A DNA stretch of 64,000 nucleotides from Rhodospirillales bacterium (GTDB lineage Bacteria; Pseudomonadota; Alphaproteobacteria; UBA828), in assembly GCA_028818565.1 (NCBI GenBank), contig JAPPNV010000307.1, forward strand, positions 16,374 through 80,373, in the 5' to 3' direction. The notes beneath the pieces are model-generated. The model was not told the origin of the DNA, did not search any database, and saw only the letters and a program-made list of their open reading frames with translations. Every line of letters begins with the position of its first letter. Position 1 is the stretch's first letter. Shown one piece after another: positions 36,540 to 56,116 of this stretch. A program made the translations under genes and the position numbers.

Positions 36540-36545
36540 CGGCGC

Positions 36546-38595: not shown

Positions 38596-38647
38596 CCGGC
38601 GTCTTCTCAACCTGCGGAATCCGGCCTGGACCGTCCCCGCTACAGGG

Positions 38648-40127: not shown

Positions 40128-40916
40128 TCACGAGCCGAACGCCTCGGTCAGGCGACCGCGCCACCCGTGATTGGTCATGTCCAGCTGGATCGGCGTGACC
40201 GAAATCGCGTTCTCGTGGATCGCATGGAGATCGGTTCCGGGGTGTTTGCCACCGTCCTTGTAGCTGATCTCCACCCAGAAGTAGGGCACGTGGCGCGTGT
40301 CGATGCGCCCGTCGATGGTGAAGGAACCCGGCGGCCGCTGCCCCTGGGCGGTGATGCGGACGCCGCTCACCGATTCCGGCAGCGCATCCGGGAAGTTGAC
40401 GTTGACCAGCGTGCCCGAGGGCCAGTCCGGCAGGCGCATGAGGGTCTCGATCACGTCCGGTGCGAAGGCTTCCGCCGTGGCCCAGAGCGCCTCGCCGCCC
40501 ATGGTGAACACCTGGCTGAGCGCGATCGAGCGGATGCCGAGCAGGGTTCCCTCCATCGCTGCGGCGATGGTGCCGGAATAGGTCATGTCCTCCGCGAGGT
40601 TCGCGCCGCGATTGATGCCGGAGAGGAGGACCGTAGGCGGGCTCTCGGTCATCAGCTCGTGGATCGCCATCAGCGCGCAGTCGGTGGGCGTGCCGTCCAC
40701 CGCGTAGCGCCTCTCGCCCATCTGGCGCAGGCGGATCGGCGTATGCATCGAGATCGAATGGCCGGCACCGCTCCGCTCGTGATCCGGCGCGACGACCCAG
40801 ACGTCGTCTGACAGGCTCCGCGCGATCGCCTCGAGAATCTTCAGCCCCCTGGCGTGGATGCCGTCGTCATTGGTGACCAGGATGCGGTGGTGGGAGAGAT
40901 CGCTCTCCGCTGGCAT
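40128..40916 (-). CDS. surE: 5'/3'-nucleotidase SurE
   Basis: Internal ATG with AAAGGA SD gives MPAESDLSHHRILVTNDDGIHARGL..., the SurE signature. The upstream part of the track ORF is noise. Confidence 0.85.
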   Translation of the reverse strand: MPAESDLSHHRILVTNDDGIHARGLKILEAIARSLSDDVWVVAPDHERSGAGHSISMHTPIRLRQMGERRYAVDGTPTDCALMAIHELMTESPPTVLLSGINRGANLAEDMTYSGTIAAAMEGTLLGIRSIALSQVFTMGGEALWATAEAFAPDVIETLMRLPDWPSGTLVNVNFPDALPESVSGVRITAQGQRPPGSFTIDGRIDTRHVPYFWVEISYKDGGKHPGTDLHAIHENAISVTPIQLDMTNHGWRGRLTEAFGS

Positions 40917-41103
40917 GGCGGGGATCCTTTCGGGCGCGCTCGGCGGAGGCGGCAGTCTCTTCGCCGTGCCAGCCGAGCGCAAGGATGCCTCCAGGCGCCG
41001 CCGGATTGCGATGGCTGGCCTTGCGGTGTGACGGCATTGACAGCCCAAAGGCCGATCCGCATGTTGGCGCCTCCGTTCCGGCGAGCCTGCCCTGGGGGAG
41101 AGT

Positions 41104-41856
41104 GTGGCGAAGCTCTACGTGGACTCGGACAAGTACGGCGATCAGGCCCACTCGCCCACCGTCGAGGCGTTCCATAGCGCGATCAAGGACCTCGTCCGGC
41201 GCCGCCTCGACGAGAGCGGGGTCGACTGGAACAGCTTCGTCTTCGACAAGTCCTACGATCTGATTACCGCGGCCGATTTCGAGGAGATCGAGAGGAAACT
41301 CCTCGACGCCGGGCACCGCTACGACTTCTCGGCCGTGATTTCGGTGAACGAACGGCCCGAGGCCTACAAGCCCGCCGAAGGCATCTTGGGCGACGACCCC
41401 GACTGGACCATGGAGCACCCCGACGCGCCCTCAGGCGACGCAGACGCGGAGGGCCGGGCGCTCTGCGGCGTCGGCGACAACGTGATGCGCGTCTCCGAAA
41501 ACACCGTGGGCACCGCGCACTACGTCCGCTCCAGCAGCCAGGTCATGCGCTACCTCGGCGATGGCGTGCCGCCCGGGACCATCGCCATCATCGACGATTC
41601 CGGCGGGACCCTGACGGCGCCGATCCTGGAGCGGTTCGCCGGAATTATCTGCATGGGCGGCACCGTACGCTCCCATCTCGGCATCCTCTCGCGGGAGTAC
41701 GGCATTCCCTGCTTCATGAACGCCAAGATCACCGGGATCAGGGAAGGCGAGCGGCTGGAGATGGAGACCGCCGCGGCGGCGAAGACGGCGGAGGCCTACC
41801 AGAAGGGCGAGGAAATGACCGCCAACATCTGGAAGCTGGTCCAGGAGGCTCCGTGA
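41104..41856 (+). CDS. protein with a C-terminal PEP-utilising-enzyme mobile (phosphohistidine) domain
   Basis: GTG start with GGGGGAGAG SD. The C-terminal approximately 90 aa, GTIAIIDDSGGTLTAPILERFAGIICMGGTVRSHLGILSREYGIPCFMN, fits the swivelling phosphohistidine domain of PEP synthase/PPDK (GG-T-SH-AI-ARE-GIP). The N-terminal approximately 140 aa is unassigned. Confidence 0.6.
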   Translation: MAKLYVDSDKYGDQAHSPTVEAFHSAIKDLVRRRLDESGVDWNSFVFDKSYDLITAADFEEIERKLLDAGHRYDFSAVISVNERPEAYKPAEGILGDDPDWTMEHPDAPSGDADAEGRALCGVGDNVMRVSENTVGTAHYVRSSSQVMRYLGDGVPPGTIAIIDDSGGTLTAPILERFAGIICMGGTVRSHLGILSREYGIPCFMNAKITGIREGERLEMETAAAAKTAEAYQKGEEMTANIWKLVQEAP

Positions 41857-43409
41857 TGGTCGGCGCGCCGCGACTTTCATACGCCCAGCTGCTGGAGACC
41901 AACAACCTCCTTCAGACCTTCACCGACGAGACCTACTGGCTCTGCGTCACGCGGACGGTGCAGGAGTCGAAGCTCTTTCCTGTGCCGCCCTACATGCTGC
42001 TCTCGTACCTCAACGCCTTCTACCGCTATCCCTCGCTCTTGCGGAAGGTGGAGAGCGTGATGACGGCGGAAGAGATCGGCGACCGCGCCCGCGAGGGGCG
42101 CCCGCCCGGCAAAAGCGCCATGGGCTGGGGGATGCCGGGCTTTTACCTGCTCGGCCGCGAGTGGCTCATCAACATGGGGCTGCTGCGGCCACAGGACGCC
42201 GCCGAAGACGTCGTCTACCTGATGGATTTCTGGAAGCGCCTGCAGCTCTCCTGGCACAGGAACGACGGGCACATCACGAACAAGGAATTCGGCCACCGCT
42301 GCCAGATCCTGCCCGAACGCAGGCTCCAGGTCTTCGAGTCCGACGCCTACGGCTGCGAGACCGGCGATCCGCTGCACAGCGCGGCGACCCAGTTCATGGC
42401 GTCTGCGGCCCAATACGGCTTCCTGGTGAGCTGCGAGAGCCGCATCAGCCTGCTCAACACCGGGCCCTACAAGCTTGCCGACGGCAACGAGATGATCGTC
42501 CGCGAATTCATGGACCTCGGCGAGGGCGACTTCCCCTGGCTCGACGACGTGGCTGCGGACATTCCCTACAACAACCTCACCGTCCCGATGCTGGTGAAGG
42601 ACTGCCACTTCTACCTGGTCGACGACTGGGGCAGCTTCGAATCCGAGCCCGAGTTCCGGGCAGAGAGCATCGTCGGCGTCGGCCTCTACACCTCCGACCC
42701 GCTCACCGAGGGGCACGTTCCGGTGGGGATGGAGAGCCGCGAGGCCCTGACCGAGACCTTCCGCACGCTGGACGGGCTCTTCAAGGAGGCGACGGCGCGG
42801 CTCTGGAAGCGCATCGCCGGCTGGAGCCGCGACCAGATGCTCGATGCCGGCGCGCTCACCTACTTCGGCATCTGCAAGGATCTCGCCCATGTCGCCGGCG
42901 TCTACGCCCACGAGGACTGGATGCTGATCGACGAGCGGGCCGAGCGCTTCCGCCCGCTGCTCAACGACGAGTTCAGCCGCGACTGCCTGGGCGAGCTGGT
43001 GGGGCTGCTGACGCTGCCGAGCCATCGCCTCTCGTCCTACAGCATGATGCAGCACGGCAACGGCCCGACGCGCATGTACACGCCGATCCCCTACGCGATC
43101 CTGGACGGCGAGGGTTACGTGCCCACCTGCGGCCCGGTCTACCCCGGCGCCACCACGCTCCCGGCCAAGGCCGACCGCTACCGCACCAGCCAGGGTGTGC
43201 TGACGCTGGAGGAGTACAACCTACGGGTCCGTGACTTCGCGCCGCAGTCGGATCGGTATCGTTTCCTGGACGAGACCTGGCTCAAGTACAACCACGACAC
43301 GCCGCGTGCCGACAAGATGTACCGGCACGAGCAGGAGCGGGCGCGCAAGATCCAGGATTGCGGCGCATCGCTCGGCGCTGCGGAGCTGGCGGCGCTTCCC
43401 CGCGACTAG
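41856..43409 (+). CDS. hypothetical protein (517 aa), translationally coupled to the upstream phosphohistidine-domain protein
   Basis: ATG at 41856 overlaps the upstream TGA (GTGATGG), with AGGAGG 8 nt upstream. I recognise no family (MVGAPRLSYAQLLETNNLLQTFTDETYWLCVTRTVQESKLFPVPPYMLLSYLNAFYRYPSLL...). Confidence 0.55.
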   Translation: MVGAPRLSYAQLLETNNLLQTFTDETYWLCVTRTVQESKLFPVPPYMLLSYLNAFYRYPSLLRKVESVMTAEEIGDRAREGRPPGKSAMGWGMPGFYLLGREWLINMGLLRPQDAAEDVVYLMDFWKRLQLSWHRNDGHITNKEFGHRCQILPERRLQVFESDAYGCETGDPLHSAATQFMASAAQYGFLVSCESRISLLNTGPYKLADGNEMIVREFMDLGEGDFPWLDDVAADIPYNNLTVPMLVKDCHFYLVDDWGSFESEPEFRAESIVGVGLYTSDPLTEGHVPVGMESREALTETFRTLDGLFKEATARLWKRIAGWSRDQMLDAGALTYFGICKDLAHVAGVYAHEDWMLIDERAERFRPLLNDEFSRDCLGELVGLLTLPSHRLSSYSMMQHGNGPTRMYTPIPYAILDGEGYVPTCGPVYPGATTLPAKADRYRTSQGVLTLEEYNLRVRDFAPQSDRYRFLDETWLKYNHDTPRADKMYRHEQERARKIQDCGASLGAAELAALPRD

Positions 43410-43450
43410 GGGCGCGCGCCTCTCCCCACGCGTCCGAGCAGCCTGGCCCA

Positions 43451-44947
43451 ATGCAGATCGGCGAATACATCCGGCGCGCGGGCGCCATGTTCGGCGAGGC
43501 GCCAGCGCTGACCGAGGGCGCGCGCACGCTGAGCTTCCGCGCACTCGACGAAGCGACGGACCGGCTCGGCAACGCGCTGCTGGTGGAAGGCTTCGAGCCG
43601 GGCGATCGCGTCGGCGTGCTGCTGCCCAACGGGATCGACTGCCTGATCGCCTACTACGCGCTTGCCAAGTGCGGCCTCGTGCGGGTCTCGCTCAACGTGC
43701 GCGAGACCGCGGCGGACCATCGCTACAAGTTGGGCGATAGCGGCGCGCGTGGACTCATCCACGACGGCTCTGGCAGTGCCGACGGCATCGATGTGGAACT
43801 CGTCTACGACCTCGACGCTCTGCGCCGGCTCATCGACGACGGCCCGCCCGGCGCCTGCCGCGTGGACCGCGACCTTGAGGCGCCCTTTCGCCTGGGCTTC
43901 ACCGGCGGGACCACCGGCGCGCCCAAGGCGGTCACGCTCACCACGCTGGGCGAGACTGCGGAGCTCTCGGCCTTTCTCATGGACCTGGTGCCGGACCTCG
44001 CGCCGGGCGACCGCTTTCTCCACGCCGCCCCCATCGCACACGCATCGGGCGCCTTCTTCCTGCCCTCGCTGGTGCGGGGCGTGCACCAATGGATCATGCC
44101 GCACTTCGACGCGGCCGGCTTCATCGCCATGGCCGCGCAGGGGCAGGCGACCCATACCTTTCTCGTGCCGACCATGCTGGCCATGATCATGGAGGAGCCC
44201 GCGCTGGAGACGGCGACGCTCCGCTTCAAGCGCATCTGCTACGGCGCTTCGCCCATCGCGCCGAGCCTCTTGGAGCGCGCCATGGACCGCTTCGGGCCGG
44301 TCTTCGCCCAGACCTACGGCCAGGCTGAATCGCCGATGGTTATCACCTGTCTCGGGCCGGAGGATCACGACCGCGTGGGCTCGTGCGGGCGGCCCTATAC
44401 CACCGTGGACGTGGCGATCTTCAACGATGACGACATGCCCGTGCCCACCGGCGAGCGGGGCGAGATCGTCTGCCGCGGCACCCAGCTCATGGCCCGTTAC
44501 TGGAACCGCCCGGAGGAGACGGCCAAGGCCTTCCGCAACGGCTGGCTCCATACCGGCGACATCGGCCGCATGGACGAGGACGGCTTCTTCTACATCCTCG
44601 ACCGAAAGAACGACATGCTCATCAGCGGTGGCTACAACGTCTATCCCCGGGAGATCGAAGACGTGCTGCTTGCGTACGAGGGCGTTGTCGAGGCCGCGGT
44701 CGTGGGCTTGCCCGACGAGAAGTGGGGCGACCGCGTTCATGCGGTGGTCGCCGGGCGGCCCGGCCTGGACCCGGAGGCCGTGCGGCTGTTCTGCCGCGAG
44801 CGGCTAGCGGGCTACAAGTGCCCGAAGAGCGTCGAGATCTGGGACACGCTGCCCAAGAGCGGGGCCGGCAAGCTCCTGCGCCGCGCCGTGCGCGACCGCG
44901 TTATCGCGGCGGCAGCCACCGAGGCGCCCGTGCAGCCGGGCAACTGA
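43451..44947 (+). CDS. AMP-dependent synthetase/ligase (acyl-CoA synthetase family)
   Basis: AMP-binding motifs FTGGTTGAPKAV, YGQAESP, GWLHTGDIG and the lysine-containing C-terminal KSGAGKLLRR are present. Confidence 0.85.
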   Translation: MQIGEYIRRAGAMFGEAPALTEGARTLSFRALDEATDRLGNALLVEGFEPGDRVGVLLPNGIDCLIAYYALAKCGLVRVSLNVRETAADHRYKLGDSGARGLIHDGSGSADGIDVELVYDLDALRRLIDDGPPGACRVDRDLEAPFRLGFTGGTTGAPKAVTLTTLGETAELSAFLMDLVPDLAPGDRFLHAAPIAHASGAFFLPSLVRGVHQWIMPHFDAAGFIAMAAQGQATHTFLVPTMLAMIMEEPALETATLRFKRICYGASPIAPSLLERAMDRFGPVFAQTYGQAESPMVITCLGPEDHDRVGSCGRPYTTVDVAIFNDDDMPVPTGERGEIVCRGTQLMARYWNRPEETAKAFRNGWLHTGDIGRMDEDGFFYILDRKNDMLISGGYNVYPREIEDVLLAYEGVVEAAVVGLPDEKWGDRVHAVVAGRPGLDPEAVRLFCRERLAGYKCPKSVEIWDTLPKSGAGKLLRRAVRDRVIAAAATEAPVQPGN

Positions 44948-44950: not shown

Positions 44951-45553
44951 ATGAGCGACACCTACCTCGTCCTCCACGGGCTTGCGATCAAGAAGCACGC
45001 GGACGCTGGCGCGGTTGCCGCTGCGCTCGGACTCGCCGAGGACGAGGTGCGCGCCGTGCTGGACGATGCGGTGGCGAAAGGCCGCGCAGCGCGCGCAGGC
45101 GAGGCATATTCGCTGACTCCCGTCGCCCGTGTGGCGCTCGACGGCGCCTATTCCCGGCTCTTCGCCGCGCAACGGGCCGATGAGGCCTTCGCCGCCGCCC
45201 ACGAGCGCTTCGAGGCGATCAACATAGAGCTAAAGCAGCTGATGACCGCGTGGCAGACCATCGAGATCGATGGCGAGAACGTGCTGAACGACCACACCAA
45301 CAAGGACTACGACGACAGGCTGATCGACCGCCTCGGCGCCCTGCACGAGCGGGCGGAGACGACCCTCCAGCAACTGAGCGCCGGGCTGCCACGCCTCGCA
45401 ATTTATTCGGAAAAGCTCGAAGCGGCGCTGGAGAAGGCCGAGGACGGCGCCATCGAGTGGGTCAGCGGCGCGCGGATCGAGTCCTACCACACGGTCTGGT
45501 TCGAGCTTCACGAGGACCTGCTGCGGATCCTCGGCCGCACGCGGCAGGAATAG
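44951..45553 (+). CDS. hypothetical protein (200 aa; possible winged-helix-like N-terminal region)
   Basis: It starts 4 nt after the ligase stop. Its stop TAG overlaps the next start region (TAGGCATG). No confident family assignment. Confidence 0.5.
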   Translation: MSDTYLVLHGLAIKKHADAGAVAAALGLAEDEVRAVLDDAVAKGRAARAGEAYSLTPVARVALDGAYSRLFAAQRADEAFAAAHERFEAINIELKQLMTAWQTIEIDGENVLNDHTNKDYDDRLIDRLGALHERAETTLQQLSAGLPRLAIYSEKLEAALEKAEDGAIEWVSGARIESYHTVWFELHEDLLRILGRTRQE

Positions 45554-45555: not shown

Positions 45556-47316
45556 ATGGGTGCCGTCGGCCGCTGGGTCCTTTCCCTTGACGGCGCTGCG
45601 TTGCCCGACGGTGCGCTTGTCGGGGGCAAGGCGTGGGGCATCGCCTTCATGCGCCACGCGGGCCTCCCGGTGCCGCCCGCCTTCGTGGTGACGACAGAGG
45701 CCTGCCGCGCCTACCTCGCCGAGGGCCAGTTGCCGGATGGCCTCACCGACGAGCTTCACGCCGGCATCGCCATGCTGGAGGCGGAGACCGGGCGCCGCTT
45801 CGGCGTGCCCGAGCGCCCGTTGCTGCTGGCGGTCCGCTCCGGCGCCGCCATCAGCATGCCGGGCATGCTGGATACGGTGCTCAATCTCGGGATCGACGAA
45901 GAGATTGAGGCGGCTCTGGCGCGAGAAAGCGGCGACGTGGCCTTCGCCCGCGACACCCACCGGCGCTTCCACGAGATGTACGCGCGCATCGTGCTCAAGG
46001 CGGGGATCGACGGGCTTCCGCCCGAGGGATCCGTCGAGGAATGGCGGGCGGCCGTGGCGGAGGCGGGGGCCGCAGCCAGGGTGCCGGAGGCGCCGGTCGA
46101 TCAGCTTCTCGGCGCGGTTCGTGCCGTCTTCGACTCATGGAACGGGCGGCGCGCGAAGCGTTATCGCCGGCATCACGGGCTCGCGGATGACGCGGGCACC
46201 GCCGTCACGGTGCAGGCCATGGTGTTTGGCAACCTCGGCGCGAACAGCGGGACGGGCGTGCTTTTCAGCCGCAATCCGCTCACCGGTGCGCCTGTGCCTT
46301 ACGGCGAGTATCTTGCCTGCGCCCAGGGGGAGGACGTGGTCTCCGGCCAGCGGACGCCGCAGGGACTCGATGCGCTGTCGTCGTCCCTGCCGGAGGCGCA
46401 CGCCGCCCTGATCGACGCCGCGGGCCGGCTGGAGGCGCTGAACCGGGATGTGCAGGACATCGAGTTCTCGGTACAAAATGGCGCGCTCTACCTGTTGCAG
46501 ACCCGCACCGCCGCCCGGGCTCCCGCAGCGGCCATGCGCATCGCCGTCGATCTGGTGAACGAGGGAACCATCTCCTCCGACGAAGCGCTCGCCCGCGTCA
46601 GCGCGGCCCAGGTCCGGACGCTGCTCATGCCCCGCCTCGATGAGGGCGCCGGAGAGGACGCCGCCCTGCTCGCGGAAGGCGAGGGCGCGAGTCCTGGTGT
46701 CGGCATCGGCAAAGTCGTGCTGGATGCCGACGCGGCCGAGGCGAGCGGCGCGGCCGGCGAGGACGTGGTGCTGGTGCGCCCGACCACCAGCCCGGAGGAC
46801 GTGCACGGCATGGTCGCCGCCCGCGCGGTCGTGACGGCGACCGGGGGTGCGACCTCGCACGCCGCCGTGGTAAGCCGCTCCCTCGGCGTTCCCTGCGTCG
46901 TCGGCTGCGGCGAAGGCGTGGGCGCGGCGCTTGCGGGCAGGGAGGTGACGGTGGATGGCAAGGCCGGGCAGGTGTTCGATGGTGTCCTGCCGGTGAGCAT
47001 TCCCGCGGAGACGGACGATCCGTACCTGCGCCGGATTGCGGCATGGGCCCGCGCGGCCGCGCCCATCGCGGTCTATCGCGCCGAAGATTCGGCGCCCAAC
47101 GGCGCGGTCGATCTCGACCGCTTGCCCGGCGGTGAGGAACCGGAGCGAATGCCCGCGCTGCTCGCGGGGGCTCCCGGCGCAAAGGGCGGCGCGCTCGCCA
47201 GCGATGCGGGTGTCGCGGCCGCCGTTGCCGCCGGCCTCGACTTCATCGTTGTTCGCCACGCTCTGCCGGCCCTGCTCGCGGCCTGTGCCGCCGCGCGCGC
47301 CGAGGCTGCCACATGA
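45556..47316 (+). CDS. pyruvate-phosphate-dikinase-like protein: PPDK_N nucleotide-binding domain plus central phosphohistidine domain, lacking the C-terminal PEP/pyruvate TIM barrel
   Basis: MGAVGRWVLSLDGAALPDGALVGGKAWGIAFMRHAGLPVPPAFVVTTEACRAYLAEG...LLLAVRSGAAISMPGMLDTVLNLG...RRFHEMYARIV...VFDSWNGRRAKRYRRHHGLADDAGTAVTVQAMVFGNLGANSGTGVLFSRNPLTG...YGEYLACAQGEDVVSGQRTP is collinear with the PPDK N-terminal domain. ATGGATSHAAVVSRSLGVPCVVGC is the catalytic His swivel domain. The protein ends about 80 aa later, so there is no room for the roughly 300-aa PEP-utilizers C domain. Confidence 0.8.
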   Translation: MGAVGRWVLSLDGAALPDGALVGGKAWGIAFMRHAGLPVPPAFVVTTEACRAYLAEGQLPDGLTDELHAGIAMLEAETGRRFGVPERPLLLAVRSGAAISMPGMLDTVLNLGIDEEIEAALARESGDVAFARDTHRRFHEMYARIVLKAGIDGLPPEGSVEEWRAAVAEAGAAARVPEAPVDQLLGAVRAVFDSWNGRRAKRYRRHHGLADDAGTAVTVQAMVFGNLGANSGTGVLFSRNPLTGAPVPYGEYLACAQGEDVVSGQRTPQGLDALSSSLPEAHAALIDAAGRLEALNRDVQDIEFSVQNGALYLLQTRTAARAPAAAMRIAVDLVNEGTISSDEALARVSAAQVRTLLMPRLDEGAGEDAALLAEGEGASPGVGIGKVVLDADAAEASGAAGEDVVLVRPTTSPEDVHGMVAARAVVTATGGATSHAAVVSRSLGVPCVVGCGEGVGAALAGREVTVDGKAGQVFDGVLPVSIPAETDDPYLRRIAAWARAAAPIAVYRAEDSAPNGAVDLDRLPGGEEPERMPALLAGAPGAKGGALASDAGVAAAVAAGLDFIVVRHALPALLAACAAARAEAAT

Positions 47317-47792
47317 CCATCGACCGCAAGGAGGTCGAGGCGCTGATCCGCCTCTTCGAGCGGTCGGACTGGCACGAGCTCCGGCTCGAGACCGACGGGC
47401 TGAAGCTGGTGCTCTCGAAGGACGCGGATGCGGCAGCGCTCGGGTCGGAAGCCGAGGCTGCCGCAGCCTCGGCAGAGAAGGCTCCCCTGGAAACCACACG
47501 CGCCCAGGACGACGTGGCGCCGGTGGACGGGCTGGTCCCGATCACGGCGCCCAACCTCGGCACCTTCTATCGCGCGCCGAAGCCGGGGGTCGCGCCCTAC
47601 GTGGAGGTCGGCCAGCAGGTCGGCGAGGCAACCGAGGTATGCCTGATCGAGGTCATGAAGCTGTTCACGCCGGTTCGGGCCGGGATCAACGGCCGGATCG
47701 CCAAGGCCTGCGTCGAGGACGGCGAGATGGTGGAGTTCGGCGCGCCGCTCTTTCTGGTCGAGCCGGAGGCCGAAGCGGCCGAGAAGGCGTGA
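47313..47792 (+). CDS. biotin carboxyl carrier protein (biotinyl/lipoyl domain protein)
   Basis: ATGA overlap with the upstream stop. The C-terminal biotinyl domain carries the CLIEVMKLFTPV lysine motif (AMKM-type) within a GxxVxxGxxL hammerhead context. Confidence 0.8.
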   Translation: MTIDRKEVEALIRLFERSDWHELRLETDGLKLVLSKDADAAALGSEAEAAAASAEKAPLETTRAQDDVAPVDGLVPITAPNLGTFYRAPKPGVAPYVEVGQQVGEATEVCLIEVMKLFTPVRAGINGRIAKACVEDGEMVEFGAPLFLVEPEAEAAEKA

Positions 47793-49150
47793 TGGCCCTC
47801 TCGCGCGTCTTCGTCGCCAACCGGGGGGAGATCGCCGTGCGCATCGTCCGCGCCTGCCGCTCCCTCGGGCTCGAGAGCGTCGTCGGGGTCTCCGACGCCG
47901 ACCGCGAGGGCCTGGCGGCGGAGCTTGCGGACCGCGCCGTGGTGCTGGGGCCGGCGCCGGCGCGCGAGAGCTACCTCAACGCCAATCTCGTGGTTCATGC
48001 GGCGAAGGCGACCGCATGCGACGCGCTGCATCCGGGCTACGGCTTCCTCTCCGAATCTTCGGCCCTCGCCGGGCTGTGCGAGCGGGAGGAGATCGTGTTC
48101 GTGGGGCCGCGGGCCGAGACCATCGAGCGGCTCGGCGACAAGCTCACCGCCCGCGCCATCGCAGCCGAGGCGGACGTGCCCATTGTCCCTGGTTCCGGCG
48201 AGATCCGCGCGGCAGCGGAGGCACGCACGTTTGCCGCGCGGGTCGGCTATCCGGTGCTGATGAAGGCCAGCGCCGGCGGCGGCGGGCGCGGCATGTTCGT
48301 TGCGCGAACGGACGCGGACATCGACGACGGTTTCGAGCGCGCATCGGCGGAAGCCGAAGCCGCCTTCGGCGACGGGGCGCTCTTCGTCGAGCGCTTCGTC
48401 GAGGACGCGCGTCACGTCGAGGTCCAGATCATGGGGGACGGTGCAGGCGCGGTCGTCCACTTCGGCGAGCGGGATTGCTCGGTGCAGCGGCGCTTCCAGA
48501 AGGTGGTGGAGGAAGCGCCGGCGGCGGCGCTGTCGGCCGAGGCGCGCGCGCAGATCCACGACGCCGCCTGCCGTCTCGCCCGGCACCTCGACTATCAGAG
48601 CGCCGGCACGGTCGAGTTCCTCTACGACGTGGCACGCGGCGAGGCCTATTTCATCGAGGCCAACGTGCGTATTCAGGTTGAGCATCCGGTGACGGAGGAA
48701 GTCACCGGCATCGACCTGATCGAGGAGCAGTTGCGCATCGCTGGAGGTGGCGGGCTCAGCGTCGCGCAGGGGGACATCGCCCTTGCCGGCCACGCCATCG
48801 AATGCCGGATCAACGCCGAGGCGCCGGAGCGGGACTTCGCGCCGTCGCCCGGTTTGATCGACGCCTGGCGCGCACCGGAGGGCCAGGGCATCCGCATCGA
48901 CAGCCACTGCCGCGCGGGCGCCTTCGTGTCTCCCTTCTACGACAGCATGATCGCCAAGCTGATCGTGCGCGCCGGCGACCGCACGCAAGCGGTGGAGCGC
49001 ATGAGCGGCGCGCTGGACGCGTTTCGGATCGGTGGCATCGACACCAACCTCGCGTTCCAGGCGCGCCTCGTGCGGCACCCTGACTTCGCAGCCAACAGTC
49101 TCAACACGCGCTGGCTGGAGGATGTCTTCATGCCCTCGCTCATGCACTAG
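47792..49150 (+). CDS. biotin carboxylase (ATP-grasp; AccC-like subunit)
   Basis: TGATG overlap with the BCCP stop. MALSRVFVANRGEIAVRIVRACRSLG..., YPVLMKASAGGGGRGM and EANVRIQVEHPVTE are present. It runs the full length of AccC (452 aa). Confidence 0.85.
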   Translation: MALSRVFVANRGEIAVRIVRACRSLGLESVVGVSDADREGLAAELADRAVVLGPAPARESYLNANLVVHAAKATACDALHPGYGFLSESSALAGLCEREEIVFVGPRAETIERLGDKLTARAIAAEADVPIVPGSGEIRAAAEARTFAARVGYPVLMKASAGGGGRGMFVARTDADIDDGFERASAEAEAAFGDGALFVERFVEDARHVEVQIMGDGAGAVVHFGERDCSVQRRFQKVVEEAPAAALSAEARAQIHDAACRLARHLDYQSAGTVEFLYDVARGEAYFIEANVRIQVEHPVTEEVTGIDLIEEQLRIAGGGGLSVAQGDIALAGHAIECRINAEAPERDFAPSPGLIDAWRAPEGQGIRIDSHCRAGAFVSPFYDSMIAKLIVRAGDRTQAVERMSGALDAFRIGGIDTNLAFQARLVRHPDFAANSLNTRWLEDVFMPSLMH

Positions 49151-49166
49151 GCCGAGGAGAGCGACG

Positions 49167-50627
49167 ATGGCGCATATCGAATTCCTCGACGAGACCATGC
49201 GGGACGGGCAGCAGAGCCTTTGGGGCATGCGCATGCAGGCCGGCATGGCGCTCCCCATTGCGCCGGTCATCGATCGGGTGGGCTACCGCGTGGTGGACCT
49301 CACGGGCTCCAGCCTCTTCGAGGTGCTGATCCGCCACTGCCGCGAGAACCCGTGGGAAGGGCTCGACCTCCTGGTCGACGCCATGCCGAACAGCACGATC
49401 CGCGGCGGCATGCGCAGCAACGCGAGCGTTACCTTCGGCGTCACACCCGATGCGCTGATGGACGTCTGGATGCGGCAGCTTTGCGTCCACGGCTGCCGCA
49501 GCTTCTGGATCTACGACGTTCTCTTCAATATCGACAAGACGCACCGCCTCGCCAAGGTGGCCAAGGAGTTCGGCGCGGAGGTGGCGGGCGCCATCATGTT
49601 CACGCTGAGCCCGGTTCACACCGACGACTATTACGCCGACAAGGCGGACAGGCTCTCCGCCTCGCCGGATATCGACACGCTCCTGCTTTACGACACGGGC
49701 GGCGTGCTGGAGCCCGACCGCATGCGCACGCTGGTTCCGGCGATCATGGCGAAGGCGCGCGGCAAGCCCATCGAGTTCCACTCGAATAACCTCCTCGGCG
49801 CCTCCGGTCGCGCCTACGTCGAGGCGATCAAGCTCGGCATCCGCATCCTGCACACCGCCTGCGGACCCATGGCGAACGGCCCCTCGGTGCCCTCGGTCGA
49901 GGTGATGACGCGGAACGTCGAGCACCTGGGCCATACCCACAACATCGACCGCTCGCTGTTGCCGCAGATCGCGGAGCACTTCGAGAGCGTGGCCGCGGCG
50001 GCCGGGTTCCCCATCGGCGTGCCGCAGGAATACGACCTCTTCTCCGTGCGGCATCAGGTGCCGGGCGGGATGATGGGCACGCTCAAGGCGCAGCTCGTCC
50101 AGCACGAGATGGCGGACCGGCTCGACGACGTGCTGGAGGAAACCGGCCACGTGCGCCGCGAGCTCGGCTACCCCGGCATGGCGACACCGTTCTCCCAACT
50201 GGTCGGCACGCTGGCTGTGCTCAACATCGTCACCGGCGAGCGCTATTCCGTTATCCCGGACGAGGTGATCCAATACGCCGGTGGGCACTACGGCGAGCCG
50301 GTCGCGCCCATCGATGAGGACGTGCTGGACCGGATTATGGCCGCACCTCGCGCCAGGGAGGTGCTGGCCGAGCCGCCGGAGCAGCCTGCGCTGGCCGAGC
50401 TGCGCAAGCGCCACGGCACCGATGACGACGACGAGCTGATCCTGCGTGCCCTGGTCCCGGCGGCGGACCTCGACAGGATGCGCGCCGCGGGCCCGGTGAA
50501 GCGGGACTTCCCGATTCTCTCCACGCCGGAGCTCGAGCACGTGCGCAAGCTGATGGCGCTCTCCACCTCGAAGTACGTCGAGGTGGAGACCGCGAACCTC
50601 TCGGTCTCGTTGCGCCGCGCCGGCTAG
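49167..50627 (+). CDS. carboxyltransferase subunit of a biotin-dependent oxo-acid carboxylase (HMGL-like TIM barrel plus PYC/OadA-type domain; no biotinyl domain)
   Basis: AGGAGAGCGACG SD. FLDETMRDGQQSLWGMRM...IDRVGYRVVDLTGSS...LIRHCRENPWEGL...FWIYDVLFNIDK...MFTLSPVHTDDYY...LLLYDTGGVL...IEFHSNNLLGASGRAYVEAIKLG is collinear with the pyruvate carboxylase B-subunit / oxaloacetate decarboxylase alpha carboxyltransferase domain. Confidence 0.8.
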   Translation: MAHIEFLDETMRDGQQSLWGMRMQAGMALPIAPVIDRVGYRVVDLTGSSLFEVLIRHCRENPWEGLDLLVDAMPNSTIRGGMRSNASVTFGVTPDALMDVWMRQLCVHGCRSFWIYDVLFNIDKTHRLAKVAKEFGAEVAGAIMFTLSPVHTDDYYADKADRLSASPDIDTLLLYDTGGVLEPDRMRTLVPAIMAKARGKPIEFHSNNLLGASGRAYVEAIKLGIRILHTACGPMANGPSVPSVEVMTRNVEHLGHTHNIDRSLLPQIAEHFESVAAAAGFPIGVPQEYDLFSVRHQVPGGMMGTLKAQLVQHEMADRLDDVLEETGHVRRELGYPGMATPFSQLVGTLAVLNIVTGERYSVIPDEVIQYAGGHYGEPVAPIDEDVLDRIMAAPRAREVLAEPPEQPALAELRKRHGTDDDDELILRALVPAADLDRMRAAGPVKRDFPILSTPELEHVRKLMALSTSKYVEVETANLSVSLRRAG

Positions 50628-50634: not shown

Positions 50635-51804
50635 ATGCGCCGCGCCTGCATCGTCGATGTCGTCCGCACGCCCTTCGCCAGGGGGCGGGAGGGCGGTGCG
50701 CTGAGCGCGGTTCACCCGGTCGACCTGCTCGCGAAGACGCTCGAGGGCCTGGTCGCGCGCACCGGCATCGACCCCGGCGCGGTCGACGACGTGATCGCGG
50801 GCTGCGTCATCCAGGTGGGCGAGCAGGCCGCCAACATCGGCCGCCAAGCCTGGCTCGCGGCGGGCTTTCCCGAGACCGTCCCCGCCGTCACCATCGATCG
50901 CAAGTGCGGCTCGGCGCAGCAGGCGATGGACTTCGCGGCCCAGGGCGTGATGGCGGGGGCCTACGACCTCGCCATCGCCTGCGGGGTCGAGATGATGAGC
51001 CGCGTGCCCATGGGCAGCAACCGGCGCGGTAAGGACCATCTGGGTCCGATGTTGCGCCGGCGCTATGCGGAAGGCCTGGTGCACCAGGGCATCTCCGCCG
51101 AGCTGATCGCCGCACGCTGGGGCCTCTCGCGCGAAGCACTCGACGCCTATGCGCTGCGCTCGCACCGGCGCGCCGCGGCTGCCGAGGACAAGGGCCTCTT
51201 TGCGCGCGATATCGTACCCATCGACAGCGCTGCCAGGGACGAAGGCATCCGCCGCAACACGAGCGCCGAGAGGCTGGCCGCGCTGGAGCCGGCGTTCGTG
51301 GACGCCGGTACGGCCGAGCGCTTTCCCGAGATCGGCTGGGTGGTGACGGCGGGGAATTCAAGCCAGGTTTCCGATGGCGCATCGGCGCTGCTGATCGCTT
51401 CGGAAGAGGCGGCGCGGCGGTTGAAACTCGCCCCGCGCGCCGCCATCACCCACTTTGCGGTCTGCGGCGACGACCCCGTGCTCATGCTGACCGGAATCAT
51501 CCCGGCGACACGGAAACTGCTGGCGCGGAGCGGCCGGACCTTCGACGACATCGACTGCTTTGAGGTCAACGAAGCCTTCGCGTCCGTGGTGCTGGCGTGG
51601 GCGGAGACGCTGGGTGCGGACCTCGACCGGGTCAACGTCAACGGCGGCGCCATCGCCTTCGGCCACCCCGTCGGCGCGTCGGGCGGACGGCTCACGGCCA
51701 ACCTGATCGGCAGCCTGGAGGAGAACGGCGGGCGCCTCGGCCTTCAGACCATGTGCGAGAGCGGCGGCATGGCCAACGCAACGCTGATCGAGCGGCTGGG
51801 TTGA
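50635..51804 (+). CDS. thiolase (acetyl-CoA C-acyltransferase family)
   Basis: RKCGSAQQA holds the active-site Cys. NVNGGAIAFGHPVGASG and the CESGGMANA C-terminal motifs are present. Confidence 0.85.
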   Translation: MRRACIVDVVRTPFARGREGGALSAVHPVDLLAKTLEGLVARTGIDPGAVDDVIAGCVIQVGEQAANIGRQAWLAAGFPETVPAVTIDRKCGSAQQAMDFAAQGVMAGAYDLAIACGVEMMSRVPMGSNRRGKDHLGPMLRRRYAEGLVHQGISAELIAARWGLSREALDAYALRSHRRAAAAEDKGLFARDIVPIDSAARDEGIRRNTSAERLAALEPAFVDAGTAERFPEIGWVVTAGNSSQVSDGASALLIASEEAARRLKLAPRAAITHFAVCGDDPVLMLTGIIPATRKLLARSGRTFDDIDCFEVNEAFASVVLAWAETLGADLDRVNVNGGAIAFGHPVGASGGRLTANLIGSLEENGGRLGLQTMCESGGMANATLIERLG

Positions 51805-51813: not shown

Positions 51814-52554
51814 CTACGCCGCCAGGTAGTGGCCGCCGTTGACGAAGATGGTCTGCCCCTGGACGAACTCGGCTTCGGGGCTCGCGAGGAAACGGATCAC
51901 GCTGGTGTAGTCCTCGTCCCGCACGCCGCGCCCGCTCGGGTTGGTCTCGGCGGCGTGCTTCACGATCTCGCTTGCCTGGTCGCCGAACAGCGCCCGCACG
52001 GCATCCGTGTCCACCACGCCGGGGGCGACGCTGTTGATCCGCACGCCACGCGGCGCGAGCTCGCTCGCGAGATAGCGCACCAGAGATTCCGCCAGCGCCT
52101 TGGCGACGCCGATGGCGGCGTAGTTGGGGACCACGGTGCGCCCGCCCCGGCTGGTGAGGAAGAACACCGTGCTGCCGCGCCGGAGCAGCGGATCGGCCGC
52201 CTGCACGAGGTAGAGCAGCGCCGTGCCGTTGAGATTGACCGCGGCGGCGAAGTCGTCCGCATCGCAGTCCAGCGCGGGCCTCGGAATGGCGCGGACGGCG
52301 CAGTGCACGAGCTGGTCGAGCCTGTCGACTCGCTCCGCCACCTCGGCGAGCACAGCGCGCGCGCCTTCCGGCGTGCCGACATCCTGCTTGATCACGTGGC
52401 AGCGTGCGCCCCTGGCCTCGACCAAGGAATTTGCCTCGCGCGCGGCCGCGTCGTCGCCCGCATAATTGAGAAACACGTCGACGCCGGATTCGGCAAAGGC
52501 AAGCGCGATGGCGCGTCCGATGCCCTTGGTGCCGCCCGTTATCAAGATCGACAT
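51814..52554 (-). CDS. SDR-family oxidoreductase
   Basis: MSILITGGTKGIGRAIA holds the TGxxxGxG motif. The YAAIGVAKAL catalytic Y-x3-K and the PGVVDTD motif are present. Confidence 0.8.
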   Translation of the reverse strand: MSILITGGTKGIGRAIALAFAESGVDVFLNYAGDDAAAREANSLVEARGARCHVIKQDVGTPEGARAVLAEVAERVDRLDQLVHCAVRAIPRPALDCDADDFAAAVNLNGTALLYLVQAADPLLRRGSTVFFLTSRGGRTVVPNYAAIGVAKALAESLVRYLASELAPRGVRINSVAPGVVDTDAVRALFGDQASEIVKHAAETNPSGRGVRDEDYTSVIRFLASPEAEFVQGQTIFVNGGHYLAA

Positions 52555-52875: not shown

Positions 52876-53736
52876 ATGACCGTGAACACCATCGGCGTGG
52901 TGGGCGCCGGCATGATGGGCTCGGAAATCGCGCTGGTGATGGCGCTCGCCGGCAAGGCGGTGCTGCTGAGCGACCGCGATCAGGCGCTGCTCGACAAGGC
53001 CGTGGCCAAGCTCGACGGCGTGCTCGAGAAGGGCATCGCCCGCGACTTCTACAGCGACGACGACAAGGACAGGGTGCAGGACAACCTGCGCACGACCCTC
53101 GACCTCGGCGACTTCGCACCTTGCGACATGGTGATCGAGGCCGTGTTCGAGGACGAGGAGGTAAAGGCCGGCGTCTATCGGGCGCTCGGCGAGGTTCTGG
53201 CCCCGGCGTGCCTGATCGCGAGCAACACGTCGAGCATCTCGATCAGCGTGCTCGCCTCCTACCTGGAGGAGGCCCGCCGGCCCTTCTTCCTCGGCACCCA
53301 TTTCTTCTCGCCGGTCTCGCGCATGAAGCTGGTCGAGGTGATCCCGGGGCTGGAGACCGCGGAAGAGACCGTCGCCTCCGTGACCGCGGTCTGCGAGGAG
53401 GCGGGCAAGACGCCGGTGCCGATCAAGGATGTCGTCGGCTTCGCGGTCAACCGCCTGATCCACATCTTCTGGATCGAGGCGATCCGCCTGGTGGAAGAAG
53501 GGGTGGCTACGCCCGAGGATATCGACACCGCCTGCAAGCTCGGCATGGGGCTCCCGGTCGGGCCGTTCCGCCTGATGGACGCGGTGACCAACAACCTCAG
53601 CCTTGACGTGCAGGAGATCCTGCACGAGGCCTACGGGCCCCGGTTCATGCCGCGCCCCCTGCTGAAGCAGATGGTGAAGGCGGGCTACAATGGGCGGAGC
53701 GCCGGCAAGGGCTGGTATCGCTACGACGAAGGCTGA
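52876..53736 (+). CDS. 3-hydroxyacyl-CoA (3-hydroxybutyryl-CoA) dehydrogenase
   Basis: GGGAGG SD. IGVVGAGMMGSEIA is the NAD-binding motif. The NTSSISI and HFFSPVSRMKLVEV motifs are present. Confidence 0.85.
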   Translation: MTVNTIGVVGAGMMGSEIALVMALAGKAVLLSDRDQALLDKAVAKLDGVLEKGIARDFYSDDDKDRVQDNLRTTLDLGDFAPCDMVIEAVFEDEEVKAGVYRALGEVLAPACLIASNTSSISISVLASYLEEARRPFFLGTHFFSPVSRMKLVEVIPGLETAEETVASVTAVCEEAGKTPVPIKDVVGFAVNRLIHIFWIEAIRLVEEGVATPEDIDTACKLGMGLPVGPFRLMDAVTNNLSLDVQEILHEAYGPRFMPRPLLKQMVKAGYNGRSAGKGWYRYDEG

Positions 53737-53780
53737 GCCGGGGCAGCGTTCGCGCTCGACCGGATCGAGGAGGGAGAGAG

Positions 53781-54812
53781 ATGGAAGCAGCAGTGTTCAG
53801 GGGTGTCGGCAATCCCTTGTCGGTCGAGCAGGTAGACGAGCCGTCAGTGCGGCCGGGCGATCTCCTGATCAAGGTCGAGTATTGCGGAATCTGCGGCTCG
53901 GATCTGCACGCGACCGAGGCTGGCGCGCTGGTGGTGCCGGACGGCCAGATCCTGGGCCACGAGTTCACCGGGACCGTCGTGGAGATGGGCACGGAAGTAG
54001 GCGGGGACTGGAACGTAGGCGATCATGTGACCGCCGTGCCGGTCAACGCCTGTGCGGAGTGTGGACGCCAGTGCAAGCTCGGCATGGGCATCCACTGCCC
54101 CAACAACATCATCACTGGCTTCGGCGCGCCGGGGGCATACGCCGAGTACATTCGCGTCGATGCGGGCAACGCGCTGCGCCTGCCGAAGGGCTTGAGTTTC
54201 CGCGAGGGCGCGACGGCAGAGCCGCTCTCCGTCGGCCATCACGTGATCGACAAGGCGGGCATGCGGCCGGGTACCAACGTGCTGGTGATCGGCGCCGGCC
54301 CCATCGGCCTCTCGTGCACGACCTTCGCCCGCTTCTCCGGCGCCCGCCACGTCGTGGTGAGCGAGTTTGCCGAGAACCGCCGCGAGCGCGCTCTGGCAAT
54401 GGGGGCCACCGCAGTCATCGACCCCAACGCCGGCGATGTGGCCGAGCAGTACGCGGCGATCGCCGGCGGCCCGCCCGATCTCGTGATCGAGTGCGTGGGC
54501 GTCCCCGGAATGCTCGGGCTCTGCATCGACCTGGTGAAGCACCAGGGCAAGGTCATGGTCTGCGGCGTCTGCACCAACGAGGAGAGCTTCATCCCGCTCG
54601 CCGCGCTGGCGAAGGAGGTCTGCCTGCAGTGGGCGCTCGGTTACAAGCCGAGAGACTTCGAGGTGGTGCTCGATCTGCTTGCGAGCGGGCGGATCGACCC
54701 GGCGCCGCTCATCACCCACGTGATCGGCTTCGACGATCTCGCCGCGCGCTTCGAGAAGCTCAGAACGCCGACCGACGAGTGCAAGGTGCTGTTGCGCCCC
54801 CAGCGGGACTGA
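53781..54812 (+). CDS. zinc-dependent MDR alcohol dehydrogenase (threonine/sorbitol-dehydrogenase-like; candidate secondary-alcohol dehydrogenase)
   Basis: GAGGGAGAGAG SD. CGICGSDLH is the catalytic Zn site. CAECGRQCKLGMGIHC is the structural Zn site. VIGAGPIGL binds NAD. Confidence 0.85.
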   Translation: MEAAVFRGVGNPLSVEQVDEPSVRPGDLLIKVEYCGICGSDLHATEAGALVVPDGQILGHEFTGTVVEMGTEVGGDWNVGDHVTAVPVNACAECGRQCKLGMGIHCPNNIITGFGAPGAYAEYIRVDAGNALRLPKGLSFREGATAEPLSVGHHVIDKAGMRPGTNVLVIGAGPIGLSCTTFARFSGARHVVVSEFAENRRERALAMGATAVIDPNAGDVAEQYAAIAGGPPDLVIECVGVPGMLGLCIDLVKHQGKVMVCGVCTNEESFIPLAALAKEVCLQWALGYKPRDFEVVLDLLASGRIDPAPLITHVIGFDDLAARFEKLRTPTDECKVLLRPQRD

Positions 54813-54825
54813 CGGGAGGGATTCG

Positions 54826-55611
54826 ATGACCGGACGGGTCGACGGCAAGATCGCGCTCATCTCGGGCGCCGGCACGGGCGTCGGGCGCGCCTGCATGGTT
54901 CTGTTCGGACGGGAGGGCGCCAAGGTGGTCGGCTGCTCGCGTACCCAGGCGAACCTTGACGAGACGCTGCGGCTGACGAAGAAGGCGGGCGGCGACGGTG
55001 TCGTGGTCGCGCACGACCTTGCGCGGCCCGAAGGGGCGGAGGCGTTGATCCAGGCCGCCATGGATGTTTACGGGCGCATCGACATCCTCGTGAACTGCGC
55101 GAGCGTCGGCTACAGCTGGCTGGAGAAAAGCCCCGATTCCATGGGCGACGTGGTCAACACCACGCCCGAGAAGTGGCAGGAGGTGATGGGGATCAACCTC
55201 GATTCCTATTTCTATCTCTGCCGCGGCGTCGTTCCCATCATGCAGAAGCAGGGCGGCGGCGCGATCGTCAACGTGGCCAGCATCTCGGGCTTCCAGGGCC
55301 TTCCCGTCGCGCACACCTACACGGCGGCGAAAGGCGCTGCGATCAACCTGACGCGCTCGCTCTGCGTGACCTATGCCAAGGACAATATTCGGGCCAATTG
55401 CGTCGCACCGGGCTTCATCGACACGCCGATGGTGGCGCCCGTCCTCAATCTCTTCGACGATCCGGACATGGCGGACCGCCTCACGCCGATGCTGCGCCCC
55501 GGCACGCCTGAGGAGATGGCCTACGGCTGCCTCTATCTCGGCTCCGACGAGGCGACCTACTGTAACGGCACCGTGCTGACCATCGACGGCGGGACCACGG
55601 CTCGGCAGTAG
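54826..55611 (+). CDS. SDR-family oxidoreductase
   Basis: GGGAGGG SD. ISGAGTGVGRA, NCASVG and YTAAKGA (Y-x3-K) are present. Confidence 0.85.
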   Translation: MTGRVDGKIALISGAGTGVGRACMVLFGREGAKVVGCSRTQANLDETLRLTKKAGGDGVVVAHDLARPEGAEALIQAAMDVYGRIDILVNCASVGYSWLEKSPDSMGDVVNTTPEKWQEVMGINLDSYFYLCRGVVPIMQKQGGGAIVNVASISGFQGLPVAHTYTAAKGAAINLTRSLCVTYAKDNIRANCVAPGFIDTPMVAPVLNLFDDPDMADRLTPMLRPGTPEEMAYGCLYLGSDEATYCNGTVLTIDGGTTARQ

Positions 55612-55690
55612 GCCCGCCGACGCGGCGCTTCGATCCGCGCACGGGTCAAGACCAAGCCGCTCACGCAATGGTCGACGGGGCGGGTTAGGC
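55612..55690 (+). pseudogene. remnant of an MscS-family C-terminal coding region (no start codon)
   Basis: Reads ...[19 protein letters not shown].... A 22-nt identical core (tcaagaccaagccgctcacgca) and roughly 80% identity over about 50 nt match 32278-32330 inside the intact MscS-family gene ([23 protein letters not shown]). Confidence 0.45.
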
Positions 55691-55724
55691 GCCGCTACAG
55701 CACGAGAGATGGAGGTTCGGGAAT

Positions 55725-55901: not shown

Positions 55902-56116
55902 CTTCGGGAAATCGCGCCCCGCCCCACCTCGTTATTCCGGCAAGGCTCACGCCGCGCTGGACGTGCAGGCCTTGGAGCCGGCACGATCCTTCAACAATTC
56001 AAACAGTGATGTGAACCGCACCGCGGACGCGTTGACTCGGTCGCGGCCCGGCCGCATCGTGCGCCGCGAACTTGAGCTGGCGCGGCGGCGGAACAGGAAC
56101 CGCGTACGGGGGTTGC

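Follow-up and report, generated by a model that had tools for sequence, protein, structure and literature searches.

Which substrate does a biotin-dependent carboxylase act on when its carboxyltransferase is of the pyruvate carboxylase type and its biotin carrier is a free-standing protein, and to which pathway does such an enzyme belong? The question is raised by a locus of a Rhodospirillales bacterium, located in a stretch of 64,000 nucleotides (assembly GCA_028818565.1, contig JAPPNV010000307.1, positions 16,374 to 80,373), which is called the window here and numbered from its first nucleotide. At 47313-50627 it encodes a BCCP (biotin carboxyl carrier protein), a biotin carboxylase and a carboxyltransferase, and a kinase module lies directly upstream in the same operon; the characterised enzymes of this kind act on a phosphorylated substrate. 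With slightly better than even confidence, we assign the enzyme to a ketone-degradation pathway with two ATP-dependent steps, which would follow the logic of the Hpe and Acv pathways with a different kinase and a different phosphatase. This reading is based on the sister-clade relationship of the transferase to those of the Hpe and Acv type, the coupling of kinase and carboxylase genes, the enrichment of phosphatases of two unrelated families near the operon, and the pair of CoA ligase and thiolase genes that accompanies them.

The first of the three carboxylase genes (47313..47792, plus strand) encodes a BCCP of 159 residues with a Biotin_lipoyl match in Pfam (E 9e-15) and the motif EVMKLF around its biotinyl lysine. 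It is followed on the same strand by an AccC-type biotin carboxylase of 453 residues (47792..49150; start at ATG 47792 or GTG 47789), in which all three Pfam domains (Biotin_carb_N, CPSase_L_D2 and Biotin_carb_C) are present and whose translation displays the GGGGRGM loop and the catalytic E-x-N-x-R-x-Q-V-E motif. The third gene (49167..50627, plus strand) encodes a PycB/OadA-like carboxyltransferase of 486 residues, recognized by PYC_OADA (E 3e-27) and weakly by Pfam HMGL-like (22.8 bits, under the 29-bit cut-off). A preliminary description of the locus, made from its letters and translations, had noted the three consecutive genes and the missing C-terminal biotinyl domain of the transferase, and both statements hold. 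Pfam finds no Biotin_lipoyl domain in the transferase, and its match to NCBIfam NF006761 stops at profile position 431 of 591; the best 120 homologues all measure 484-500 residues, so the family as a whole lacks the domain and the window's transferase is not truncated. In its place, the alignment displays a C-terminal extension of ~90 residues that is common to all free-standing transferases. The overlapping junctions of the same description stand in part: a pyruvate phosphate dikinase (PPDK)-like gene upstream overlaps the BCCP gene by ATGA, and the BCCP gene overlaps that of the biotin carboxylase by TGATG. The transferase gene does not overlap its predecessor, since its start, ATG 49167, comes after a 16-nt spacer with a GGAGAG ribosome-binding site; the N-terminus MAHIEF is conserved, and the open reading frame (ORF) from GTG 49032 is an over-extension. 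Scans for promoters and terminators within the operon returned nothing exceeding shuffle expectation.

As the preliminary description proposed, the enzyme is not an acyl-CoA carboxylase, and a crotonase-fold transferase is absent. In particular, AccA and AccD are missing from the operon, and the other two subunits remain below the equivalog cut-offs of acetyl-CoA carboxylase, with 108 bits against 115.2 for the BCCP (TIGR00531) and 568 bits against 626.5 for the biotin carboxylase (TIGR00514); the latter passes the broader subfamily model NF006367 (607.8 bits, cut-off 597). The transferase likewise falls under every NCBIfam cut-off for PycB, OadA and 5S, with scores and cut-offs of 310 and 402 (NF006761), 268 and 734, 268 and 756.5, and 190 and 827 bits. 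It shares with PycB (5ks8), OadA (2nx9) and 5S (1rqb) the HMGL-like TIM barrel with PYC_OADA and the conserved RD..QS and PGGM motifs, but differs from them in its identity of only ~30%, the lack of a biotinyl domain, an altered metal site and another operon context.

The architecture of three polypeptides is not new: biochemical work on it dates from 2022, and it had earlier been predicted as XccABC. It is that of the phosphophenylethanone carboxylases HpeCBA and AcvCDE and of the predicted XccABC, which act on the acetyl methyl of 4-phospho-acetophenone or 4-phospho-acetovanillone, between a kinase and a phosphatase step. HpeCBA of Rhodococcus rhodochrous GD02 carboxylates 4-phospho-acetophenone and 4-phospho-acetovanillone, but not the unphosphorylated ketones, at the expense of one ATP converted to ADP; in this pathway HpeCBA is preceded by the two-component dikinase HpeHI and followed by the haloacid dehalogenase-type (HAD) phosphatase HpeD, which dephosphorylates the product, as well as by a CoA ligase and a hydrolase (PMC9618137). 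The homologous acvABCDEF genes of Sphingobium lignivorans SYK-6 are essential for growth on acetovanillone, and the transferase they encode has been compared to PycB at 26% identity (bioRxiv 10.1101/2022.04.28.489975). The labels HpeA/ApkA and HpeB/ApkB for biotin carboxylase and transferase are used in opposite ways in Table 1 of PMC9618137 and in bioRxiv 10.1101/2022.04.28.489975; the reported masses of 57.4 and 49.3 kDa indicate that HpeA should be the transferase. Furthermore, MarK, a protein of the UPF0261 family, is a third kinase type linked to the same carboxylase (2025; PMC12624787), and a paper of 2026 still lists no variants beyond these (PMC13101465). XccABC of Aromatoleum aromaticum EbN1 is the counterpart predicted for 4-hydroxyacetophenone. 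It is said to go together with a thiolase and with an acetoacetyl-CoA synthetase.

The genes of the window resemble these systems. The carboxylase genes encode, in tandem, a separate BCCP, an AccC-type biotin carboxylase and a transferase of ~490 residues with a C-terminal extension in place of the biotinyl domain, and they lie downstream of an ATP-dependent kinase, in the company of genes for a phosphatase, for a CoA ligase and for an enzyme that cleaves beta-keto compounds. Comparison loci were obtained by a tblastn search of plasmids with the window's transferase, and their annotated contexts were read. An AcvAB-like kinase precedes BCCP, biotin carboxylase, transferase and HAD phosphatase genes in Rhizobium (L006; 40.6% transferase identity), and a MarK-like kinase precedes the same set in Pseudomonas putida YC-AE1 (L005; 41%) and Sphingobium yanoikuyae (L004; 38%), and Rhodococcus sp. 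JS3073 has an hpeHICBAD-like gene order (L088; 38%). Clusters of Burkholderia, Cnuibacter and Sulfitobacter have no kinase, and their transferases are 35-39% identical to that of the window (L007, L089 and L090). Thus, the window's transferase stands at 38-41% identity to those of AcvAB-, MarK- and hpeHICBAD-type clusters, compared to ~30% for OadA and PycB, and its biotin carboxylase at 50-51% identity to the counterparts in Acv-type clusters.

In a neighbour-joining tree with 200 bootstraps and OadA, PycB and 5S as references, the free-standing transferases are monophyletic (100%) and separate from all three references. The kinase-less types form the earliest branches among them, and the window clade (100%) is the sister of the Hpe/Acv clade (100%), with 90% for the pairing, and is not nested within it. 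A phylogeny of this kind had been suggested in the preliminary description, which had left the choice between a 2-oxo acid and a methyl ketone; of these, the methyl ketone is the best fit, as the nearest characterised relatives, HpeCBA and AcvCDE, use aryl methyl ketones, which they carboxylate at the acetyl group, and the 2-oxo acid finds no support in a context of CoA ligase and thiolase and not of tricarboxylic acid cycle genes.

The basal, kinase-less clusters (L089, 7926-14610; L007, Burkholderia sp. THE68, 8980-12392; L090, Sulfitobacter faviae, 6139-9449) retain the full metal site. On the Cnuibacter physcomitrellae plasmid (L089), the carboxylase genes are followed by BioY, the A and B subunits of a 3-oxoacid CoA-transferase and a thiolase, and the cluster would seem to take a small ketone to acetoacetyl-CoA with the help of biotin. 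No literature on such a clade was found.

An alignment of 64 transferases from fetched loci, the window's own transferase and the structures 2nx9, 5ks8 and 1rqb allows the active sites to be compared. The metal-binding residues, whose conservation was to be checked according to the preliminary description, are partly lost in the window: Asp13 and His205 are kept, Tyr175 takes the position of the carbamylated Lys, and HxH reads His205-Ser-Asn207, with Asn in place of the second His. The first Asp is retained in all aligned groups. The other positions vary with the type of locus. Hpe/Acv-type transferases have Lys and HxH at the metal site and Thr at the position of the pyruvate-binding Arg; kinase-less and classical transferases (OadA, PycB, 5S) have Lys, HxH and Arg. 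The 56 proteobacterial transferases of the window's type have Tyr and Arg at the first and last of these positions, with HxN in 53 of them and HCH in three deep-branching members, and the Rhodococcus transferase of this type has Glu, HFH and Arg. The carbamylated Lys is therefore lost in every transferase of the window's type, and most also have HxN for HxH. The Arg column corresponds to Arg621 of Rhizobium etli pyruvate carboxylase, which binds the carboxylate of pyruvate. As judged from the alignment, the metal pocket of the transferase has therefore been altered along with the switch to another kinase.

The carboxylase genes belong to a set of nine with the order swivel protein, 518-residue protein, CoA ligase, 200-residue protein, VadK-like PPDK, BCCP, biotin carboxylase, transferase and thiolase, in which the five genes preceding BCCP share its strand and are separated by tight junctions. 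The first (41104..41856) encodes a phosphohistidine swivel protein of 250 residues with a C-terminal Pfam PEP-utilizers domain (E 4e-7) and the motif GGTVRSH191LGILSREYGIP; His191 and the surrounding motif are invariant in 25 orthologues. The second (41853..43409) encodes a 518-residue protein that matches no Pfam or NCBIfam model and serves as the marker of this operon type, and the third (43358..44947, start uncertain between 43358 and ~43451) an AMP-forming acyl-CoA ligase (Pfam AMP-binding, E 6e-66), whose closest solved relatives are FadD8, feruloyl-CoA synthetase and MenE and which is 55% identical to its counterpart in a Rhodococcus operon. The fourth (44951..45553) encodes the 200-residue partner of the 518-residue protein, again with no Pfam match, and the fifth (45556..47316) the truncated PPDK of 586 residues (Pfam PPDK_N and PEP-utilizers). 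For the latter, the ORF from GTG 45250 is over-extended, the 200-residue protein gene occupying 44951-45553. Behind the transferase lies the gene of a degradative 3-ketoacyl-CoA thiolase (50635..51804, plus strand; Pfam Thiolase_N and Thiolase_C), whose closest solved relatives include FadA5 and FadA.

The truncated PPDK scores 703.7 bits against NCBIfam NF004531 (PRK05878; cut-off 456 bits) over profile positions 8-532 of 534, and matches Clostridium symbiosum PPDK with an E-value of 3e-115 in stretches that end at about residue 534 of 874. Hence it comprises the ATP-grasp nucleotide-binding domain and the swivel domain, the latter with the motif TGGATSHAAVV, and the TIM-barrel domain for phosphoenolpyruvate (PEP) and pyruvate is absent. 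The same composition, with nucleotide-binding and phosphohistidine domains, no PEP/pyruvate domain, membership in PRK05878 and the catalytic His in TSHAAV, links it to VadK (Rv1127c) of Mycobacterium tuberculosis, which autophosphorylates its swivel His with ATP and Mg2+ and, according to its description, is a histidine kinase with a regulatory role and with methylcitrate-cycle enzymes as interaction partners (2026; PMC13400623). The two differ in their setting: VadK is described as a methylcitrate-cycle regulator without a known small-molecule acceptor, whereas the window's gene lies in a catabolic operon with a carboxylase and three partners. From their placement beside it, the swivel, 518-residue and 200-residue proteins suggest themselves as candidate partner families to be sought near vadK.

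For the kinase module of the window, we propose the VadK-like protein as the ATP-dependent phosphoryl donor, the separate swivel protein as the phospho-carrier and the 518-residue protein as a substrate-binding or phosphotransfer subunit. The AlphaFold model of the 518-residue protein has an overall confidence (pLDDT) of 81, with most of residues 1-510 above 90, and Foldseek returned no fold relatives below an E-value of 0.3. Sequence-profile searches with this protein against the PDB and against AcvA were negative, and the 200-residue protein had no match in the PDB. The two proteins are fused into one of ~720 residues in several genomes, with the 200-residue protein at the C-terminus of the 518-residue one (P0172, P0173, P0174 and P0230; 61% identity over residues 528-721), which argues that they act together. 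At loci lacking the CoA ligase gene between them (e.g., L037, L045, L060 and L070), the two genes adjoin. In tblastn and blastp searches, homologues of AcvA, AcvB and MarK were not found in the operon beyond generic swivel and ATP-grasp stretches; the window thus differs from Hpe and Acv loci in its kinase, a truncated PPDK with swivel, 518-residue and 200-residue proteins taking the place of the HpeHI/AcvAB dikinase or MarK.

With the 518-residue protein as marker, one genome per species was scanned and 80 loci were fetched. This protein has relatives in no fewer than 354 species genomes. The closest (96%) belong to metagenome-assembled genomes (MAGs) of Rhodospirillales and other Alphaproteobacteria, and further carriers include marine Rhodobacterales, Roseiarcus, sphingomonads, many gammaproteobacterial MAGs and Rhodococcus plasmids; cultured examples are Roseiarcus fermentans, Pseudooceanicola atlanticus, Chachezhania sediminis, Marinibaculum pumilum, Sphingopyxis sp. 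J-6 and Sphingobium estronivorans. The nine-gene order is kept across Alpha-, Beta- and Gammaproteobacteria and on the Rhodococcus plasmid pRB98, and in the fetched loci wherever the contig is long enough. Two unrelated contigs show the same order, with transferases 73-75% identical to that of the window. In the operon of Rhodococcus oxybenzonivorans pRB98, all eight compared proteins are 29-55% identical to those of the window; this operon additionally contains a Y_phosphatase3 phosphatase within it, a DUF35/SCP-x thiolase pair and an SRPBCC protein. By count, the swivel gene accompanies the marker in 81 of 84 loci, the 200-residue protein gene in 69 and the thiolase gene in 52. In a Salinisphaera locus (L002, 11541-12006), genes for a ParE toxin and a TraY-like protein are inserted between those of transferase and thiolase.

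Neighbours were counted within 10 kb of the marker gene in the 54 loci of at least 15 kb. SurE phosphatases are found in 31 of these, Y_phosphatase3 in 10-12, and one or both in 32; the chance expectation for a single-copy gene that near is well under 1%. In the window itself, a SurE-family gene (40128..41048, minus strand; Pfam SurE, E 2.5e-58; NDDG motif) is divergent from the operon, its true start lying probably downstream of TTG 41048, and Liv-type ABC transporter genes come next on the minus strand. This SurE protein is a candidate enzyme for a dephosphorylation step. A HAD phosphatase of the HpeD/AcvF type had no match in any locus with the 518-residue marker, so that SurE or Y_phosphatase3 stands in loci of the window's type where Hpe and Acv loci have a HAD enzyme. 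The final step differs as well, with a thiolase in the window in place of the HpeF hydrolase or VceB. Among the other neighbours, a GntR/FCD regulator occurs in 24 of the 54 loci and a second SCP-x-type thiolase in 23. A short-chain dehydrogenase/reductase (SDR) adjoins the thiolase in most of them and is an orthologue of one of two SDRs in the window, at 51814-52554 or 54826-55611. The first of these (51814..52554, minus strand; Pfam adh_short_C2, E 2e-57) may be a secondary-alcohol dehydrogenase that supplies the ketone.

Taken together, the pathway that we favour would proceed as follows. A ketone, which the adjoining SDR may produce from a secondary alcohol, would be phosphorylated at a hydroxyl group by the VadK-like, swivel, 518-residue and 200-residue proteins, after autophosphorylation of the swivel His of the VadK-like PPDK from ATP; the autophosphorylation is modelled on VadK, and the order of phosphorylation before carboxylation on HpeCBA, both as described in the literature on these homologues. 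The biotin carboxylase would load a carboxyl group on the biotin of the free BCCP using ATP and bicarbonate, and the PycB-like transferase would pass it to the carbon beside the keto group of the phosphorylated substrate, yielding a phosphorylated beta-keto acid. A phosphatase, SurE in the window and Y_phosphatase3 in other genomes, would then remove the phosphate, and the acyl-CoA ligase and the thiolase would convert the beta-keto acid to an acyl-CoA and acetyl-CoA. We infer each of these catalytic steps, as well as the nature of the substrate. The domain content of the nine proteins and the conservation of their operon are direct observations, as are the place of the transferase in the tree and the substitutions in its active site. 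Since the CoA ligase is FadD8/feruloyl-CoA synthetase/MenE-like and the thiolase is of the degradative FadA5/FadA-like kind, the substrate should be larger than acetone, which suggests an aromatic, alicyclic or medium-chain ketone. Acetone itself was considered and judged unlikely, given these enzyme types and the presence of a 3-oxoacid CoA-transferase in the kinase-less Cnuibacter cluster only.

Several observations weigh against this pathway. Only in the window clade have two of the four metal ligands been lost, which suggests a chemistry unlike that of the Hpe/Acv transferases; in addition, the window clade keeps the Arg of the pyruvate-carboxylate type at a position where the Hpe/Acv transferases have Thr. 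The kinase module has no detectable homology to HpeH/AcvA beyond the swivel domain, and its acceptor could differ from a substrate hydroxyl. Moreover, 22 of the 54 long loci have no phosphatase nearby, and neither aromatic ring-cleavage genes nor other clues to the substrate were found across the whole 64-kb window.

The main rival draws on the same remodelled pocket. The PPDK-derived module would make the enol phosphate of an unfunctionalised ketone, the Tyr/Asn pocket of the transferase would hold the phosphate ester, and CO2 from carboxybiotin would be added with release of phosphate. This would be a biotin-dependent analogue of the chemistry of acetone and acetophenone carboxylases, which are biotin-independent, hydantoinase-type enzymes of unrelated families, likewise spend two ATP equivalents on carboxylating a ketone to a beta-keto acid that is then activated with CoA and thiolysed, and have been reported to use phosphoenol intermediates. 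Such a route would accommodate a donor that is a genuine N-terminal half of PPDK, as its match to the C. symbiosum enzyme indicates, the loss of the carbamylated Lys in the window clade only and of one His in most of its members, the retention of the Arg and Gln that in pyruvate carboxylase bind the anionic end of pyruvate, and the long loci without a nearby phosphatase. It fits less well with the phosphatases of two unrelated families that are strongly enriched beside or inside the operon, since this route would need none, and with the sister clade, which phosphorylates remotely, at a phenol. Furthermore, the three deep-branching members and the Rhodococcus transferase keep HxH, so that a metal may still bind. 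On balance, the route appears possible but rather unlikely. The same low credence applies to its full form, in which the VadK-like, swivel and apparently novel-fold 518- and 200-residue proteins would act as one multi-subunit kinase for the enol phosphate and a metal-free transferase would carboxylate it, which would constitute an undescribed kind of ketone carboxylation.

The two other readings are less likely than the enol-phosphate route. If the kinase module were regulatory, the truncated PPDK would phosphorylate a protein, be it the swivel protein, the carboxylase or a regulator, and thereby control the carboxylation of an unphosphorylated ketone. VadK belongs to the same NCBIfam family, and its portrayal as a histidine kinase with a regulatory function points in this direction (PMC13400623); the second swivel-domain protein could be the phospho-acceptor, and related carboxylase clusters without any kinase exist, namely the three basal ones. 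Yet four dedicated genes in strict synteny across phyla and the fusion of the 518- and 200-residue proteins look like an enzyme complex, the sister clade requires a catalytic kinase, and phosphatases co-occur with the operon; we therefore hold a purely regulatory role to be quite improbable. The last reading is an ordinary anaplerotic enzyme, whether a pyruvate carboxylase in split form, an oxaloacetate decarboxylase or a carboxylase of 2-oxoglutarate. In its favour, the best NCBIfam matches of the transferase are pyruvate carboxylase subunit B and OadA, homologues are annotated publicly as oxaloacetate decarboxylase or pyruvate carboxylase, and the pyruvate site retains its Arg, Asp and Gln. 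Against these stand the scores under all curated cut-offs, the full bootstrap support for a separation from OadA, PycB and 5S, the loss of two of four metal ligands, the absence of the membrane subunits OadB and OadG, and an operon that carries a kinase module along with CoA ligase and thiolase genes. Cut-offs, tree, metal ligands and context rule out a housekeeping pyruvate carboxylase or OadA, as the preliminary description had anticipated for the former, and an anaplerotic role of any kind is very improbable.

Biotin-dependent ketone carboxylation has been known since 2022 only, and for lignin-derived hydroxyphenyl ketones only; a literature search for the operon type of the window, by the combination of PPDK, biotin carboxylase and thiolase and by biotin-dependent acetone carboxylation, returned nothing relevant. 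The novelty lies in the sister branch, which is widespread and uncharacterised: its multi-protein kinase derives from PPDK, two of its protein families have no annotation, and its phosphatases and the metal site of its transferase differ from those known before. Its kinase machinery is built on a truncated PPDK of a family that includes VadK, a virulence factor of M. tuberculosis. Identification of the substrate would add a ketone catabolic route, possibly for the turnover of lignin-, pollutant- or lipid-derived ketones, and would give a function to the two families of the 518- and 200-residue proteins. It would also test whether a PycB-type transferase works without the canonical metal site. 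If the enol-phosphate route were true instead, truncated PPDKs of the VadK type would ancestrally be small-molecule kinases.

Some further genes of the window lie close to the operon. Downstream on the plus strand, 52876-59051 encodes a 3-hydroxyacyl-CoA dehydrogenase, a Zn-dependent alcohol dehydrogenase, an SDR, an acetolactate-synthase-like enzyme dependent on thiamine diphosphate and a class-III aminotransferase, which could carry out additional steps within this catabolic island. On the other side, the minus-strand operon of SurE and the Liv-type transporter (35081-41048) ends in two tandem genes of the acetoacetate-decarboxylase (ADC) family (33459-35045, minus strand). This pair is of the beta-keto-acid decarboxylase type, which is odd beside a ketone carboxylase operon, and the pairing is kept in close relatives only; an ADC gene also lies near the kinase-less Burkholderia cluster.

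Elsewhere in the window, the housekeeping genes rnr, topA, dprA and plsY lie within 21159-28989 and indicate that the stretch is chromosomal. At 15654-16607 and 17077-18878 (minus strand), a KipI/PxpB-like protein with carboxyltransferase C/D domains, which is biotin-independent and unrelated to the carboxylase, is encoded next to genes for the large and small subunits of an aconitase-family enzyme. A PIN-domain gene (VapC-like toxin) is located at 60639-61067. Finally, the region 12001-14000 has a GC content of 0.53 compared to ~0.68 elsewhere and contains a Sel1-repeat protein gene (12622-13701, minus strand) and an ORF of 166 residues without a family match; it may have been acquired horizontally.

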